Sequence record: PZ445448.1
Origin: a phage
Length of the DNA: 64,000 nt
Strand: one strand, 5' to 3'
A program made the translations under genes and the position numbers. The stretch's first letter is position 1. Each line of letters begins with the position of its first letter. The notes beneath the pieces were generated by a model that was not told the DNA's origin, did not search any database, and saw nothing but the letters and a program-made list of their open reading frames with translations. Shown piece after piece: positions 3,412-62,897 of the stretch.

Positions 3412-3828
3412 ATGACATTAGAAGATATCATTGTTAAACCTGAGAACTATGACCAATACAACCTGTCAACTCAATCTGTAGACCTTGGATGCGCCACAGT
3501 TAGTGCGTGGCTGGTTAATGGAAAAGAGCTGGACAAGTGCTTAGAAGCTCACATGTCTGTTAACAAGTTTCTGGATGAAAATACTCACTGGCTTGAGGGT
3601 GCTGGAGTATATGCTTCATGGTTGGAGAGCATGGGCTTTGACTATCAATCTGATGAAGGGTGGTGGAGCTATCTAGCTATCTGTCCAGAAACACTGCAAT
3701 GCTTCATGAAATACTCTGAAGATCTTGAGTACCGGGCGGTGGTTGATAGTGCTATTGCCCGTTATAGCCGTAAACCTTTTTCCCATGACATTAAAACTGT
3801 GGAAGAATTTGTTGAAGTTTTCTGTTGA
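3412..3828 (+). CDS. hypothetical protein
   Basis: ATG after AAGGAGATC SD. Confidence 0.5.
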   Translation: MTLEDIIVKPENYDQYNLSTQSVDLGCATVSAWLVNGKELDKCLEAHMSVNKFLDENTHWLEGAGVYASWLESMGFDYQSDEGWWSYLAICPETLQCFMKYSEDLEYRAVVDSAIARYSRKPFSHDIKTVEEFVEVFC

Positions 3829-18022: not shown

Positions 18023-18442
18023 ATGAACATTAAATCTAATAATCCGGCATATAGCTTTGATAACGCTTTTTGTCACGGTCCGGCGGCGAAAGGATTCGAA
18101 ATCGATGGTAAACTAATTATTGTCAATGTTGACGGGGAAGAGGTTGCAGTATATCCGGTGGCAGACGTAAAAAGCCGTTTACAATGCCGCATGGATGTTA
18201 CCGCCTATCAGCTTGATCCGGTCCGCATAGTTGCCCTGGTCCTGGAAGAAGAAATTAAAGCCATGCACCATAGCAACAGATTTATTGGTGACGCGCAGGA
18301 TAATATGAAAGTATGCCGCCATAAAGTTAATGAAGTGCTTAAAGAGTACGGCTATAAAGATCTTATGATCAAACGTGAGGAAAAATTCCGCTACCGTAAC
18401 GACCTGGCAAATCGGATTTTTGAAATATACGAATCATTATAA
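18023..18442 (+). CDS. hypothetical protein
   Basis: TTGACA..TATATT promoter; AAGAGGTAAAAACACC-ATG. Confidence 0.55.
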   Translation: MNIKSNNPAYSFDNAFCHGPAAKGFEIDGKLIIVNVDGEEVAVYPVADVKSRLQCRMDVTAYQLDPVRIVALVLEEEIKAMHHSNRFIGDAQDNMKVCRHKVNEVLKEYGYKDLMIKREEKFRYRNDLANRIFEIYESL

Positions 18443-18461
18443 TTTTTTAACTGAATTATCA

Positions 18462-18486
18462 AGGGGCTTAGGCCCCTTTCTTTTTG
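18462..18486 (+). terminator. intrinsic terminator closing the plus-strand array
   Basis: AGGGGCTTAGGCCCCT followed by TTCTTTTTG. Confidence 0.65.
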
Positions 18487-18489
18487 TCT

Positions 18490-20950
18490 GCTCTTCCTCC
18501 TACCACAAACGGCCCAGCCTGGCAAGTGGAATAATTGACTAGCCATCAATCCCACACACTGTACAAATATACATGGAAAATAACTATTGCATAATTTTTC
18601 ATTGTGTGGTAGCAGGTCCATTTTTACCCGTTTTCTCTCTCAAAATTGCACGTAATGCCGCTATTGCACAAAATTTAACCTGATGCACATCTTCAATATC
18701 TTGTCAACAACTAAAAATCTTTATAAGTCATACACTTACACACTCACAAAAGCGTGTTCTACGTGAAAAATCGAGTATAACTATAGCCGCCAGATCTCAG
18801 AATTTACGTACGCTCACCATTCTATAGTCTGCTAAGTATTTATTCCAACCATGGAATAACGGAATAGTCAATACCTGCATAAAATAATTATTCGTGTAAA
18901 CTGCATAACATAAATCAGCTCAGGTGTCAACATTTTTCGTAAACAGTCCGAAATTGTCACGGTGAGTTATCATAAACAGAGAAATATTTAGTCGTCTAAT
19001 GTTTACTGTACATTACTATACTGACTGGAATCATTAGATGACTAAGAGAAAGATAAGAAATAATTAACAATACAATTATTTTATCTGTAACAATAAGGCA
19101 ACTATGCAAACGAATGGCATGGCGCGACGGAGTCGCGACATAATATAAAAGCAGTAACCATCACCCCCGTGATAGTTTGTCTGCAAACTATTAATCAGAT
19201 CATAGTTGCCTTGTATTTAGTTAATCATGACATAACAAGCAAGGCAACTATAGATCTTCTAATAGTTGCCCTGCTTTTATATTATGTCATAGAAACACCC
19301 GAAGGGGTGACCAAAGGTCACCTGGCATGGCCAGTGAAAGATTATTAACTTGTTAATTGTTAACTTGCTAATTGTTTTCATGCAAACGAATGTCATGGCT
19401 TATCCTATCTGTGTAAACAGTCAAGGTGTAAACTATCCAGGCGTAAACAATCTATACGTGAACAGTGAAACATGAAATAATAACAGTCGTTATTGTGTCG
19501 AAAGTGTATAAGGTGTCATAGTATGTCAGACAAGTTTTTCTCCTCTTTGTCAAGTGCTGCATGAAAAATTTACAAGCTTGTATGGTAGCATTTTTGCTGC
19601 CCTGTTTACATTCAGTTGTGTATGTATAACCCTTGTTGTGTGGGCGTTTAGACGTCTAGACGGTTGGAAGTCCGCAGGTTAATATCTAATCTATTGGCTG
19701 CTAACTATATCCCACACAAATAGTAAGAAATATAATTGTTATGTGCGTAAACAGTAACTCATGTTATCAATCCCTGTATGTATCGCCAGTGGTGCGCATA
19801 ATGGGTATTATGTTAAATTGCCCGTAATGATAACTATTCTCACAATGATAGGTATTCTCATTCACTCCCACAAGATAGGTTGCAAATGTTGTGCCACTGT
19901 GTGAACGGCCTCACCTATTAATTTGCCTCACTGCCTCGATATTTGAGAATTGTTATAAGAATGAGAAGTATTCCCATTTCGTCCGCCTGGCAGCACTCCA
20001 GTCGCTACCGCTCATGACAGGGCAGAACTAGACCCTCTTCAGATATTTCTGGCTGACTCTTCAGGCCTGTGTGGGAAAAGCCAACCTCTCCGGCGGCGGG
20101 GAGGGGTTTGTCAGGAAAATTGCAGGTCAATTAAAAAATTTACGTGGTATATGAAGCGCTCTTCAGGTAAGGCATGTATTATGGGATGAAACCCTCTTCA
20201 GGCAATGATATTTGTGGGTGTGATATTTGCTGGAAAGCCAGATATGACGGGACTCCCGGCGGGGCAGGGGTAGTACAGACAGGGGAAATATGGAGGATGT
20301 AGTTGGGGGAGTTGATCAAACAGGTAGAGTATGGAATATGTTACAAGTATGTTAAATATGGAGGGTGGATATCTGTAGGATTTATGTGTAAAATCAAAGA
20401 CTTAAGTGGTGTTGTGGTATTTTCTATAAATAATTCAAGTTTAATAGGTAATATTTGTCTCTATCCGCTTTGTGTGGTAAACAAATTCAGATGGTGTTGG
20501 TTTACAAGTGTATACATAATATACAAATTAAAGATACAAGAAACCCCCCTCCCCCTTCGGCTACCATTCACCTTTTCCTCTGACTGGTACTTAAACACTT
20601 ATTCAGACTCTTCAGGTTATCACCCATATATCATATGGCAGTGACTGGTGTCCTCCGGCCCCTCTTTCGTCACCCGTCCGCTTCGCCATGCTAATGCCAT
20701 AGCCAATGGTTCGGTTGTTCACCCTGTTCACTCAGGTGTATCTCCATACCCCTTCAAACCGAAGAGAACAGAAAACCCGAATTACTCGGTAAAAGAAAAG
20801 AGAAGAACTTAATTTTATCAGGATAGGCAAGAATGTCAAGGCATGACTGCTCACTAAACAAGCAAACAGTCATGTGTGGGAGGTAAGTGATTGTGGTGGT
20901 AGGAAATTTAGTTGAAAGATGTGTTATAGGTGCTCCCAGCACTTTAGCCG
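18490..20950. repeat. 2.4-kb gene-free repeat-dense region (GTAAACAG iterons, AAGGCAACTAT sites, CTCTTCAGG repeats)
   Basis: no ORF with SD on either strand; multiple short repeat families. Confidence 0.6.
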
Positions 20951-20966
20951 GGTAGCTAATTGTGTG

Positions 20967-21182
20967 TCAGTCCAGTGGTTCATCACCTACTTCACTGAAA
21001 TCAATGTTCATGGTCTCCTCCCAACCATCAATCTCAGCACCAGAGTAGAGATCTTTAGGACTTACTCCCAAAGCATCAGCAACAGAGTCCATATTTAACA
21101 CCTCTGGCAGGTATGATTTATCGAATTCAAGGTAAATCAGGCCACGAGTATTGTCAGCTCCACCAAATATTTCTATCTTCAT
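20967..21182 (-). CDS. hypothetical small acidic protein
   Basis: AGAGGAGATTTC-ATG on minus strand. Confidence 0.45.
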   Translation of the reverse strand: MKIEIFGGADNTRGLIYLEFDKSYLPEVLNMDSVADALGVSPKDLYSGAEIDGWEETMNIDFSEVGDEPLD

Positions 21183-25360: not shown

Positions 25361-25719
25361 TACCGCACCTCCTCAATAACTTCCACATCTGAGCCCACCA
25401 CAAATGCAAAAGGACAGGTTTCATGAAAGACATCCGGATCGCCGCCAAGCTTGCTAACAATCTCTCCACCACTAATAAACACAAGCTCACCGATATTCAT
25501 CAGATTGCTGAAATAGTACCCATAATGATTAAAGAATGCAGCAGGGTCAGGTAGACTAGTAGCCTCAAGCACTACATCAGTTGAGGTTACTTTCTTATCA
25601 TAACCTCTCGCCTTTTGAGATGCAAGATCTGCAGAATCCTCAGGCGACCGGAGATGCACAGGAATTGTTTCACCAATAAAGCGTACTTTCATATTATCAC
25701 CCAACAACCATAGCTTCAA
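25360..25719 (-). CDS. hypothetical protein
   Basis: ORF in array. Confidence 0.45.
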   Translation of the reverse strand: MKLWLLGDNMKVRFIGETIPVHLRSPEDSADLASQKARGYDKKVTSTDVVLEATSLPDPAAFFNHYGYYFSNLMNIGELVFISGGEIVSKLGGDPDVFHETCPFAFVVGSDVEVIEEVR

Positions 25720-25960
25720 AAGGGGTCATGAACGAATAAACGGCATCATCATCTGCTTCAGGGAATGCTCCCAAAGACTTCATGTCTGAGCCCTTGACAA
25801 ATACAAGGTTTTGATCAAAAGCTTCTTGAGGATCAATCCGATACATATTTCGTAGAATATCGCCTACCTCCTCATCAAGAGGTGAGTATGCTGTGCACGT
25901 TTTTCCGATCAAGCTTTGAGAATCAGGGTATCCACCTGAAGTTTTAAAATAAACAATCAT
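25697..25960 (-). CDS. hypothetical small protein (divergent member of MKVK family)
   Basis: shared VKG.D...GA motif. Confidence 0.4.
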   Translation of the reverse strand: MIVYFKTSGGYPDSQSLIGKTCTAYSPLDEEVGDILRNMYRIDPQEAFDQNLVFVKGSDMKSLGAFPEADDDAVYSFMTPFEAMVVG

Positions 25961-26051
25961 ATAGTATCACCTCTGGTAAGAGATTGGGATTCCTTTCCCA
26001 CAAATAATTACAAACCTTCCTTATCGAGGAAGTATGCTAATCCAAGCAGGA

Positions 26052-26321
26052 TTATTCCTCTACAATCTCATACACATCCGGAGTTACAATCAACTCTTCT
26101 CCGTTACCCGGTGCAACAAACACCACCATGCCTTCAGGTGTGTGCTTTTTAGCCATCTCGATAACATCTTCTCGCAGAGCTGGCTCCATCAGATCAAAAC
26201 CTTCACCCAGGGCATCACGAACCACCTTCATATAGTCAACTGGTTGTGCTTCGACAATCATACCTTCAACCAGTCCACAGTTTTTGTCTGCCAGCTCAGT
26301 TTTGAATAATTTAATTTTCAT
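26052..26321 (-). CDS. hypothetical small acidic protein
   Basis: ORF in array. Confidence 0.45.
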   Translation of the reverse strand: MKIKLFKTELADKNCGLVEGMIVEAQPVDYMKVVRDALGEGFDLMEPALREDVIEMAKKHTPEGMVVFVAPGNGEELIVTPDVYEIVEE

Positions 26322-26458
26322 TTAGAGGTCTCCTCAATTATTTGATATTAATAGCCGTAACCTAACACATTAACTACAACTGCGATTGCAAACATAATTT
26401 CAAAGCATGCAATCTCTACATTTGGAACTAATTTCTTGATCACACCCATTGTAGCACC

Positions 26459-26776
26459 TCATTCTCTAAAGTCAATCTTTACTTTGCCTTTCCCCTTACC
26501 TTTCTTTCCACCGCATTTAGCCAGTTGACGTGCTGCAACATCTACCATACGGTCAGTTGCCTCGTAAGCATCACTGCCTTTAGCTTTGGCAATAACTTCT
26601 TTTCCAGAATTGTCAAAAATGAACGCCATAACTTCCTGGTGATCATTTTCAACTTTTACACTCACACGTGCATAGTTGGCAGAGGGATGCAAACGCTCCA
26701 GCTTAGACATTTTGTGGGAAATGAAAGACACCATACCTTCAGTGATTTCTACGTTGCCAGTGATTTCAATTTGCAT
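26459..26776 (-). CDS. hpf: ribosome hibernation promoting factor homologue (HPF/YfiA/RaiA family)
   Basis: MQIEITGNVEITEG...KVE...DAYEATDRMVDVAARQLAK aligns with E. coli HPF MQLNITGNNVEITEA...KVEK...DMYAAIDGLIDKLARQLTK. Confidence 0.65.
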   Translation of the reverse strand: MQIEITGNVEITEGMVSFISHKMSKLERLHPSANYARVSVKVENDHQEVMAFIFDNSGKEVIAKAKGSDAYEATDRMVDVAARQLAKCGGKKGKGKGKVKIDFRE

Positions 26777-26858
26777 AACGTGTTCCTTTTAAAGAAGAGG
26801 GAACCAAACCCTCTTTGAAAACAATGATACTAAATCTGAAGCGTTGTGTCAACAGTTT

Positions 26859-27149
26859 TTACAGATTGTTGTCGATAGTTTTTAAAATATCCACAGCAAG
26901 ATCTGCCATTTTTCGAACATACTCTGCAAACTCAACAGGATCCTTGATCAAAGAATTCACAGGGTCGTACCCTAGAGCGTTCAAAATGGCTGCAGCATCT
27001 ACAACCTTCTCATCATTTGCGAAGATCTCTCCATCAAACTTGTAGGTCCATTTTGAGTCAATCTTGGCAGGGAATGATTGGTCAACGCTTGTTACACCAT
27101 CCTTTTTAAACGCTCCGGTGTTATCAGTGTCTAGAACTAAATCCATCAT
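26859..27149 (-). CDS. hypothetical protein
   Basis: ORF in array. Confidence 0.45.
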   Translation of the reverse strand: MMDLVLDTDNTGAFKKDGVTSVDQSFPAKIDSKWTYKFDGEIFANDEKVVDAAAILNALGYDPVNSLIKDPVEFAEYVRKMADLAVDILKTIDNNL

Positions 27150-27166
27150 GTTAGTACCTCACCGTT

Positions 27167-27565
27167 TCAGTTTAGCTTTTCTTCAACAACCCCATAGCTC
27201 GGGACAGAGTCAAGAGCTTTCTGGTTTAAAAGTGGTGTAGCAGAATCTGCAAACGGTGTCCAAGTTTTTGTTCTGGCATTCCAGTAATGCTTCACTCTGG
27301 AATCTGGATGCACTATAACAAAAACTTTTTCACTTGTCAACACATTAATTTCTTCTACACCCTTGCTGATAATTTCTCCGTCATAGCCACCAGTCTGGTA
27401 TCCTTCGTACCAGGTTCTTGCATATGCATAGCCAGCCTGCCAGCATGCAGCCTCCTCCGAGGTGGAGACTACGTAGAAGTCTTTCTCAAATTCTGGGATA
27501 CGCCCTTGCTTTACGCTCCAAGCTCCGCGAATTTTCATTGTAACTTTGAACAGTTTATTTTTCAC
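27167..27565 (-). CDS. hypothetical protein, paralogue of 24965-25360
   Basis: shared motifs with 24965-25360. Confidence 0.45.
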   Translation of the reverse strand: MKNKLFKVTMKIRGAWSVKQGRIPEFEKDFYVVSTSEEAACWQAGYAYARTWYEGYQTGGYDGEIISKGVEEINVLTSEKVFVIVHPDSRVKHYWNARTKTWTPFADSATPLLNQKALDSVPSYGVVEEKLN

Positions 27566-27577
27566 AACGGTTACCCA

Positions 27578-27832
27578 TCACAGCTCTACAATCTCTGCAT
27601 CTGACCCTGCCCCAAAGGCATAATAGGATTCTTCCCCGAAATAATATTCCGGTGCACCAGCAGCGATCAGGTCTGATCCCAAGATAAACACCACGTTGTG
27701 GCCTACATAACTGTGATGTTGCCGCACAGGATCATCCCACGGCAACCCTTCAAAGTATACCGCAGGAACGACCTTTCCCTTCAGGAAGGATTGTCCCAAG
27801 TAGACGTTAGAATCAAGAATTTTAACCTTCAT
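27578..27832 (-). CDS. hypothetical small protein, MKVK family
   Basis: MKVKILDSNVYLGQ..LKGKVV....ILGSDLIAAGA..E.VEL paralogous to 27822-28049 and 31469-31702. Confidence 0.5.
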   Translation of the reverse strand: MKVKILDSNVYLGQSFLKGKVVPAVYFEGLPWDDPVRQHHSYVGHNVVFILGSDLIAAGAPEYYFGEESYYAFGAGSDAEIVEL

Positions 27833-28049
27833 TCTCGTCCTCCACTATCTCTACATCCTCACCAAGGGCAAAGTTGTAGGTCCACTGGCTGTCAAAGCAG
27901 TCCTGAGATGCACCAGCGGAAATAAGATCTGCACCTTTTATTTTTAAAAGGTCAGGATAATCTTCGTTAGGGATAGCGGTAAACACTTTCCCCACTAAGG
28001 GCTCCTGACCAATATAGAAGCTTGAATCTAAAACTTTAACTTTCATCAA
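27822..28049 (-). CDS. hypothetical small protein, MKVK family
   Basis: MMKVKVLDSSFYIGQ..LVGKVF....IKGADLISAGA. Confidence 0.5.
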   Translation of the reverse strand: MMKVKVLDSSFYIGQEPLVGKVFTAIPNEDYPDLLKIKGADLISAGASQDCFDSQWTYNFALGEDVEIVEDENEG

Positions 28050-62084: not shown

Positions 62085-62159
62085 GCCCTGTTAGCTTAGT
62101 GGATAAAGCAGCGGCCTTCTAAGCCGTTGACACTGGTTCGAGTCCAGTACGGGGTGCCA
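62085..62159 (+). tRNA. tRNA-Arg (anticodon TCT)
   Basis: cloverleaf folded by hand: acceptor GCCCTGT/ACGGGGT, anticodon loop CTTCTAA, T-loop TTCGAGT, encoded CCA. Confidence 0.75.
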
Positions 62160-62163
62160 AATT

Positions 62164-62250
62164 GGGGAGTTATCCCGTAGAGGTAGCGGTGTAGACTGTA
62201 AATCTATTGTCATTGCGACTCGGGTGGTTCGACTCCACCACTCCCCACCA
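62164..62250 (+). tRNA. tRNA-Tyr (anticodon GTA), long variable arm
   Basis: acceptor GGGGAGT/ACTCCCC, anticodon loop CTGTAAA, T-loop TTCGACT, CCA. Confidence 0.7.
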
Positions 62251-62364
62251 AATTTATATTTTTAGATGCATAAATAATACAGATAATGGCATTGATATTT
62301 ATCGTCGTTTATACTAGTCACTAACTGCTCGAAAATCAGTGTCATTATCAGTATAATTTATAAA

Positions 62365-62455
62365 GGAGGGTAGGGAGCAATGGTGCTCAAGCGGTCTTGA
62401 AAACCGTCCCGTTGAGGATGACTCGATGATGGTTCGATTCCATTACTCTCCGCCA
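62365..62455 (+). tRNA. tRNA-Ser (anticodon TGA), long variable arm
   Basis: acceptor GGAGGGT/ACTCTCC, anticodon loop CTTGAAA, T-loop TTCGATT, CCA. Confidence 0.65.
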
Positions 62456-62553
62456 CATTGTTGACCTTGTAATTAAGCGAAAGCCGGAAGCAGAACCGGA
62501 TTATCAAATGTTACAGTCGTCATCGCCGACTAGCAACATGGTCAACATACTGA

Positions 62554-62650
62554 GCTAGGTAAGCCCTTTGGCAAGGGCGAGGATTTTTAATCCTGAAAAT
62601 AGACGAGGTAGTCGTTGAATACATAGGTGGTTCGATTCCATCACCTAGCA
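62554..62650 (+). ncRNA. 97-nt tRNA-like element with irregular anticodon region
   Basis: perfect 7-bp acceptor GCTAGGT/ACCTAGC, D-arm, T-loop TTCGATT, but about 10-24 nt too long and no clean anticodon stem. Confidence 0.35.
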
Positions 62651-62657
62651 CCTTTTT

Positions 62658-62733
62658 GCTGATGTAGCACAATCGGTAGTGCAATTGATTTGTAATCAAT
62701 AGGTTGTAGGTTCAAGTCCTGCCATCAGCACCA
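62658..62733 (+). tRNA. tRNA-Thr (anticodon TGT)
   Basis: acceptor GCTGATG/CATCAGC, anticodon stem ATTGA/TCAAT loop TTTGTAA, CCA. Confidence 0.8.
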
Positions 62734-62734
62734 A

Positions 62735-62809
62735 GGCCCTGTAGCTGGAAGGTTCAAGCAAGCGACTCATAATCGCCAGACGGTGGTTCAATTCCACCCA
62801 GGGCCACCA
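62735..62809 (+). tRNA. tRNA-Met or Ile2 (anticodon CAT), elongator type
   Basis: acceptor GGCCCTG/CAGGGCC with G1-C72, anticodon loop CTCATAA, CCA. Confidence 0.7.
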
Positions 62810-62820
62810 AATAGTAAATA

Positions 62821-62897
62821 CTCCGCGTAGCTCAGCTTGGTAGAGCGCCTGATTTGGGATCAGGAGGTCGAGTGTTCGAATCACTCCGTGGAGACCA
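62821..62897 (+). tRNA. tRNA-Pro (anticodon TGG)
   Basis: D-arm GCTCAGCTTGGTAGAGC, anticodon stem CCTGA/TCAGG loop TTTGGGA, T-loop TTCGAAT, CCA. Confidence 0.8.

Follow-up and report, generated by a model that had tools for sequence, protein, structure and literature searches.

A conserved homologue of ribosome hibernation promoting factor with a basic C-terminal tail in rV5-like phages of Escherichia coli

Introduction

Ribosome hibernation decides whether starved bacteria restart protein synthesis, and phages of the gut and of wastewater mostly meet such cells. Domains of the HPF family cover the ribosomal A, P and E sites together with the messenger RNA (mRNA) path (PMC6177447), and a phage-encoded homologue is already known: it has been annotated since the original record of phage rV5 (DQ832317), in which ORF144 was already named sigma-54 modulation factor, and has been discussed in two papers, one of which lists the rV5 product (ABI79209) with other ribosome-associated proteins encoded by viruses (Mizuno et al. 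2019, Nat Commun 10:752; PMC6375957), the other mentioning it, “as already described”, for five new phages of the rV5 type (Mathieu et al. 2020, Nat Commun 11:378). Here, we deal with the copy of this gene (hereafter, hpf) found in a 64,000-nucleotide (nt) stretch of phage DNA (sequence record PZ445448.1; “the window” refers to this stretch at its full length), which represents a Vequintavirus, i.e., an rV5-like myovirus of E. coli. New here are the selection acting on the gene, its presence in a syntenic sister lineage, the conservation of its promoter, the lack of a close bacterial donor, a residue-level view of the presumed ribosome-facing surface and an alignment of the C-terminal tail.

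In Thermus HPF (TtHPF), two of the named contacts are stacking ones (Tyr31 on A773 of h24, Arg103 on G676 of h23), Arg86 and Arg93 grip phosphates at the h44 base, and the linker past alpha2 (His104-Gln107, Pro109-112) overlaps the Shine-Dalgarno (SD) duplex and the mRNA path, near the position of RMF (Flygaard et al. 2018, PMC6177447). As to YfiA, its C-terminus reaches the RMF site and blocks both RMF and the formation of 100S particles.

Results and Discussion

Family membership and predicted fold

The gene lies on the minus strand, and its product divides into a domain and a tail:

26459..26776, minus strand: hpf-like coding sequence (CDS), 105 amino acids (aa) plus stop codon, ATG start; orthologue of rV5 ORF144 (ABI79209)
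26513..26776, minus strand: S30AE (HPF/YfiA) domain, residues 1-88, beta1-alpha1-beta2-beta3-beta4-alpha2
26462..26512, minus strand: Lys/Gly-rich C-terminal tail (GGKKGKGKGKVKIDFRE), residues 89-105, predicted to be disordered

The membership of this protein in the HPF/YfiA family, and hence its homology, is certain in practice. It scores 48.3 bits against PF02482 (Ribosomal_S30AE; gathering cut-off of 23.7; E of 1.8e-12 in Pfam), the match spanning its residues 3-88 and positions 1-83 of the 88 in the profile, and 45.9 against TIGR00741 (HPF/YfiA family; cut-off of 40.9), the best NCBIfam model being NF007780 (HPF/YhbH equivalog; 55.8 bits, E of 4.5e-15). Chains of E. coli HPF (YhbH; 2rql, 4v8h and 6h4n) align to residues 1-89 in a HMMER search of the PDB (E of ~5e-12), the protein is also matched in PHROG, and its AlphaFold2 model (mean pLDDT of 83.6) has the canonical topology of the family, a beta-alpha-beta-beta-beta-alpha fold with two helices on a four-stranded sheet, in agreement with ribosome-bound HPF. 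An earlier note, made from the letters of the window and a list of their open reading frames (ORFs), had proposed just such a homologue; the 105 aa ORF and the translation it gave were reproduced exactly, tail included (KCGGKKGKGKGKVKIDFRE), the residue pattern it relied on (MQ-ITGN-VEITE, KVE and D-Y-A-D---D-ARQL-K) is present in the HMMER alignment to the E. coli HPF chains, and the profile search it had named as a check indeed recovered the S30AE family above the curated cut-offs of PF02482 and TIGR00741.

Nothing folded follows alpha2: the C-terminal dimerisation domain of long HPFs (~180-190 aa in total) is absent from this single-domain protein. Judged by its profile scores, it is closer to short HPF than to YfiA, the curated thresholds granting functional equivalence to neither; as the score against NF007654 (RaiA/YfiA equivalog) is 17.6 bits, i.e., under the cut-off of 158, the “RaiA” seen in RefSeq phage records is to be read as a generic name. 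Compared with E. coli HPF, the phage protein is without equivalents of R17, Y30, R33 and K80 and is 10 residues longer, a Lys/Gly tail replacing HKDKLKQH, and its gene sits in an array of small genes with a sigma70-type promoter of its own. The fold and a flexible extension past alpha2 are common to the phage protein and E. coli YfiA/RaiA (protein Y; 1n3g, 4v8i), whereas the identity is ~25% and the tails differ, that of YfiA having 26 residues (net charge of -3) and being acidic at its end, that of the phage protein having 18 and being strongly basic.

Other phages of Enterobacteria also encode S30AE proteins, namely the jumbo coliphage kind represented by Cronobacter phage GAP32 (K4F6Q6) and Escherichia phage PBECO4 (L7TII8), which are of the HPF fold and ~110 aa long; their low identity to the window protein (~21-22%), separate PHROG (phrog_8990) and different genome type mark them as an independent acquisition.

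Retention, selection and origin

Over the 2.5 kb around hpf, the window and phage nomine (MN850649) show 100% identity, and this region has matches in 120 phage records. A single copy of hpf was found by tblastn in 118 of these 120 related records (~98%), and the encoded proteins are 90-100% identical to that of the window, one mis-filed Salmonella contig excepted. The protein of the window is 100% identical to those of phages nomine, naam and JohannBauhin and 99% identical to that of rV5; the latter is evidently the product of the same gene, being 105 aa long and sharing both position and promoter, with residue 104 being R in the window copy instead of G and nothing else of substance differing.

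Two peculiarities of the related records deserve mention. The hpf of phage inoa (MN850593; L017, 1495-1794) has lost six N-terminal residues in frame, MQIEIT[GNVEIT]EG, the deletion falling between two EIT repeats and taking out most of beta1; this may be a natural variant or an assembly error. Eighteen MG0656xx records are named “Campylobacter phage” (host C. jejuni) and encode HPFs 96-99% identical to the window protein; two such records listed are ~98% identical in DNA to positions 25500-28000 of the window, and their assignment to this host seems questionable.

Purifying selection on hpf is strong. Among 13 codon-aligned Vequintavirus copies (Nei-Gojobori method), the ratio of nonsynonymous to synonymous divergence (dN/dS) for the domain is 0.08-0.10 overall and falls to 0.02-0.06 for the pairs that diverge most (dS up to 0.8); for the host HPF, a preprint gives 0.174 between E. 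coli and Klebsiella. The adjoining small genes show 0.06-0.36, meaning that the whole array is constrained and that hpf is typical of it, not exceptional. An hpf pN/pS of 0.235 that came up in the comparison with neighbours was discarded as an artefact of the ungapped trimming of 106 aa variants.

An orthologue from a sister lineage (P0004; 103 aa) is 64% identical to the phage protein and is encoded within the same small-gene array on contigs of ~125-137 kb. This lineage is absent from the cultured-phage collection; its hpf-flanking DNA is, at best, ~75% identical to a record of the phage collection over about a quarter of the length, and synonymous sites are saturated between the Vequintavirus and the sister-lineage hpf. 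This uncultured relative of Vequintavirus is seen in Logan and ENA contigs of 16-126 kb (L004-L007), and its protein is found in NCBI under “Escherichia coli”.

Outside these phages, relatives are scarce. When 1.84 billion cluster representatives were scanned exhaustively with HMMER, just 22 proteins came up at E up to 1e-3, at the top of which stands the sister lineage (65%), all the others being 45% identical or less; Vequintavirus accounts for nearly all matches to E. coli HPF in the cultured-phage collection, and a word-indexed homology search together with a scan of IMG/VR added few extra relatives (5 proteins, 2 loci). One further candidate, P0126 (1160 aa, 8 matched stretches), proved to be an unrelated repeat protein. 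The 2019 paper suggested that the gene had been captured recently from the host, for which there is no support: the Enterobacterales HPFs are 77-100% identical to E. coli HPF and 36-41% identical to the phage protein, and no donor exceeds 45%. On these identities, the phage hpf clade is old or fast-evolving, and is now isolated.

Such data also bear on the possibility that hpf is a functionless passenger gene from the host. The six-residue deletion in inoa and two records with frameshifted tails might be taken in its favour; it is, however, contradicted by the dN/dS values of 0.02-0.10 (at dS of up to 0.8), by the retention of the gene both in nearly all of the related genomes and in the sister lineage, by a conserved promoter of its own and by the lack of a close donor, and we regard it as scarcely credible.

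Promoter and leader

Two signals precede the gene:

26824..26852, minus strand: sigma70-type promoter, TTGACA-17-TATCAT (11/12 in a consensus scan), equivalent to P144 of rV5
26783..26788, minus strand: SD-like AAGGAA, 6 nt upstream of the ATG, as read from the sequence

The rV5 record annotates “Sigma70-type promoter; P144” before ORF144, and the Gotham record also has a promoter predicted there. The promoter core, AACTGTTGACACA, is invariant in 8/8 aligned copies, the diverged lineage (L004) included, and the Murica record has a ribosome-binding site (RBS) annotated at the position of AAGGAA.

The extended -35 motif, CTGTTGACA, occurs five times in the window (at 3822, 21658, 26847, 56293 and 60978, the copy at 26847 being that of the hpf promoter) vs. 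0.94 expected, with none of 100 shuffles reaching five copies, which suggests a shared promoter class. A candidate leader hairpin at ~26795-26815 (minus strand) was rejected, as it folds no better than shuffled sequence (z of -0.57; 55 of 200 shuffles did equally well) and the sister lineage lacks it.

Presumed ribosome-contact surface and C-terminal tail

The phage proteins were compared with 18 diverse bacterial members of the family; at each of nine positions, 12 or more of these have a basic residue. Six of these nine are kept in the phage protein (K22, K25, R28, R83, K87 and K91), and four further basic residues (R37, K59, K64 and K66) have been gained and are conserved. Against TtHPF, whose query sequence was identical to chains 6gzq and 6gzx over residues 2-114, the equivalent of the h44-contacting Arg93 is retained as K87, and the K/G tail stands in place of the Arg103 region.

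The tail itself is modelled with pLDDT below 50 (residues 90-105), and the 18 residues past ARQLAK carry a net charge of +5, vs. +2 in E. coli HPF, whose tail has 8 residues. Its KGKGKVK segment lines up with the TtHPF linker's start, YVGKRHS, so that a basic tail appears to have been gained where the linkers of YfiA and long HPFs meet the RMF site. The tail of the sister lineage is likewise basic and ends in K-W-D-Y vs. K-I-D-F in the window copy. Synonymous diversity (pS) is about four times lower in the tail than in the domain (0.038 vs. 0.169).

The end of the gene coincides with another possible signal:

26448..26475, minus strand: promoter-like site, TTGACT-16-TACAAT, TG-extended (10/12 in the scan); uncertain

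This site overlaps the last hpf codons (AAG ATT GAC TTT; K-I-D-F) and the ATG of a 33 aa ORF; it is kept in Vequintavirus, reads TTGACT..TATAAT in the L003 copy and is a predicted promoter in the Gotham record. The 33 aa ORF, within 26348-26475 (minus strand), encodes a hydrophobic product (MGVIKKLVPNVEIACFEIMFAIAVVVNVLGYGY), starts 9 nt past the hpf stop and has an RBS that overlaps this stop.

Proposed role and its alternatives

What we tentatively favour, as a reading that is quite possible yet somewhat short of probable, is that the protein binds ribosomes weakly, with the help of its tail and in a salt-sensitive way, and parks vacant ones as YfiA does. Host RNA polymerase would transcribe hpf from the conserved sigma70-type promoter, probably early, judging by the promoter type, and the S30AE domain would then sit in the channel of transfer RNA (tRNA) and mRNA, between the head and body of a vacant host 30S subunit or 70S ribosome. 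The Lys/Gly tail may follow the path that other family members take past alpha2, toward the mRNA exit and anti-SD region beside the RMF site. With the grip of the core presumably weakened, the flexible polylysine tail could compensate, making the binding electrostatic, sensitive to salt and weaker than that of host HPF, and, by analogy with the C-terminus of YfiA, it could exclude RMF; salt-sensitive binding and RMF exclusion are thus what the sequence predicts. Idle ribosomes would be parked reversibly, as 70S monomers, and translation would not be shut off. Speaking for this reading are the profile scores and the fold, the purifying selection, the retention of the gene and its invariant promoter in both lineages, the six basic positions that are kept (K87 among them, as the counterpart of Arg93), the tail that is basic in both lineages and aligns with the TtHPF linker, the blocking of RMF by the C-terminus of YfiA, and the growth of expressing cultures with unaltered ribosome profiles (PMC6375957), which goes against a shut-off toxin.

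Neither the window nor any of 50,697 phage records yielded an RMF homologue (with the query verified against 6h4n_v), and a second S30AE copy was likewise not detected in the window; any dimerisation would, therefore, depend on the RMF of the host. A more specific proposition, that of a phage-adapted factor in which two core contacts to ribosomal RNA (rRNA) have been traded for a lysine-rich tail threading toward the anti-SD/RMF site, with fast, reversible, RMF-excluding 70S parking or the displacement of host HPF/RMF as the result, is in our opinion rather doubtful. If true, it would mean that the phage could exploit or protect the ribosome pool of starved gut hosts, as a viral counter-measure to hibernation or a hijack of it; more generally, a hibernation factor under strong selection genus-wide suggests that phages tune hibernation.

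A number of observations weigh against the parking reading. The most direct comes from the 2019 study (PMC6375957), in which the rV5 protein was expressed from pBAD24 in E. coli upon arabinose induction, and its peptides were detected in the cell extract; the protein was not detected in purified 70S or 100S ribosomes, and no effect on 100S could be discerned. The reasons offered by the authors include growth phase, dissociation in salt washes and a genuine loss of binding. Of the family-wide basic positions, three of the nine are missing in both phage lineages (R17 changed to V, K80 to V/T, K89 to G/S), and two TtHPF contacts are lost, Tyr31 corresponding to L29 and Arg86 to V80, both of which E. 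coli HPF retains (as Y30 and K80). The NF007780 score falls far short of the equivalog cut-off of 125, and the aforementioned identity of 36-41% sets the protein well apart from the Enterobacterales HPFs. Also to be counted here are one-base indels in the GGGGAAAGG G/A run that alter the tail in phages Murica (99 aa) and APECc02 (101 aa), although these may be sequencing errors and are not taken as a sign that the tail is dispensable. Finally, part of the conservation of the tail may be at the DNA level, owing to an overlapping promoter or RBS, given the promoter-like site in the last codons, the stop codon overlapping an RBS and the low synonymous diversity there.

How much the published negative should count depends on the way the ribosomes were obtained: they came from late-exponential cells harvested at an optical density at 600 nm (OD600) of 1 and were spun for 20 h through a sucrose cushion with 0.5 M NH4Cl, run on an 18-h gradient and pelleted once more for 20 h (PMC6375957). 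High salt is a routine means of stripping such factors off ribosomes, which is why the result weakens the ribosome-binding claim but does not refute it; it lowers the odds of tight binding while being compatible with the salt-sensitive binding of a peripheral factor.

The same experiment speaks to the second half of what the earlier note had proposed, namely that a phage copy could silence or preserve host ribosomes during takeover: the homology part held, whereas for an effect on ribosomes the nearly identical rV5 orthologue (99%) gave no sign, being missing from 70S and 100S, a failure to co-sediment that the note had named as refuting, with 100S unchanged; silencing is the less likely half of this proposal, as the expressing cultures reached an OD600 of 1 with unaltered ribosome profiles (PMC6375957). 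Active silencing of host translation by a shut-off factor would fit the occlusion of the A, P and E sites and mRNA path by HPF-family domains and a promoter of the early type. However, the growth of the arabinose-induced cultures and their unaltered profiles argue against a potent shut-off role, the family binds vacant ribosomes at a site that overlaps bound tRNA and mRNA, and a general block would strike phage mRNAs equally, all of which leaves this explanation very improbable.

A different possibility, raised in print by Mizuno et al. (PMC6375957), is that of an anti-hibernation competitor, in which the phage protein would compete with host HPF, YfiA or RMF, prevent or reverse 100S dimers and keep the ribosomes of a starved host available for phage mRNAs. 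The HPF fold and part of the basic surface are present, the extended basic tail aligns with the TtHPF segment near the RMF site (the tail of YfiA blocking RMF likewise), the phage, with no RMF homologue among the phage records, brings no dimerisation partner, and it comes from wastewater and its relatives from faeces, where hosts are often starved. Still, a factor placed in the HPF site itself blocks the binding of tRNA and mRNA, meaning that competition alone activates no ribosomes; moreover, expression left 100S unchanged (though the cells had few 100S particles), and no association with ribosomes was detected (PMC6375957). We consider this explanation unlikely.

The HPF fold could also have been neofunctionalised off the ribosome, with a different RNA, a small ligand or some host protein as its target, e.g., in anti-defence. 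The failure to find the rV5 protein on ribosomes (PMC6375957) would then be expected, and the loss in both lineages of two contact equivalents and three basic positions, along with the gain of R37, K59, K64 and K66, the NF007780 score under the equivalog cut-off and the isolation of a clade with no relative above 45% identity beyond the sister lineage are all in line with it. T7 Gp1.2 is among the weak fold matches, and a precedent exists in Bacillus phage SPO1, whose cyclic-nucleotide sponge Acb4 (anti-CBASS 4) structurally resembles, as a monomer, V. cholerae HPF (4HEI) and double-stranded RNA-binding domains (Chang et al., PMC11722364). Like the window protein, Acb4 (9E4W) is small (96 aa) and encoded in a small-gene cluster; it forms, however, a tetramer, its fold consisting of three strands with helices on their flanks, and the window protein falls outside this group, showing no sequence match to 9E4W and no tblastn match in SPO1-like phages, for which reason its identity as Acb4 was rejected. 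We consider a role off the ribosome unlikely to the same degree as a competitor, and the parking of vacant ribosomes remains what we tentatively prefer.

Neighbouring genes and annotation of related records

The array of small proteins of no known function in which the earlier note had placed hpf was borne out: ten of the ten neighbours tested are without a Pfam match and are hypothetical in curated records. One of them, an 89 aa product encoded at 26052..26321 (minus strand), bears the label “sigma 54 modulation factor” in the records of phages nomine, APECc02, A6-1 and inoa; having no Pfam match, it was rejected as a second such factor and represents a propagated annotation error. The records name the true hpf “sigma 54 modulation factor”, “ribosome hibernation factor”, “hpf”, “RaiA” or “hypothetical protein”, and in several of them it is wrongly labelled “ATP-dependent protease La type I”.

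Other features of the window

Between the plus-strand block, which ends at 18442, and the minus-strand block, whose last gene is at 20967-21182, lie ~2.5 kb (18443-20966) without an annotated CDS. The GC content drops to 0.36 at 18500-19500, repeats with ATAGTTGCC, both inverted and direct, cluster at 19088-19279, a perfect 18-nt inverted repeat is present (19137-19154 / 19271-19288), and no Rfam match was obtained in 18443-20966; this may be an origin or a regulatory region.

A tRNA cluster is located at 62085-62897 (plus strand), comprising Arg(tct), Tyr(gta), Ser(tga), Thr(tgt), Met(cat) and Pro(tgg). At 62554-62652, there is also a 99-nt tRNA-like gene, for which ARAGORN gives a four-base anticodon (atcc), and which scores only 35.5 bits against the Rfam tRNA model.
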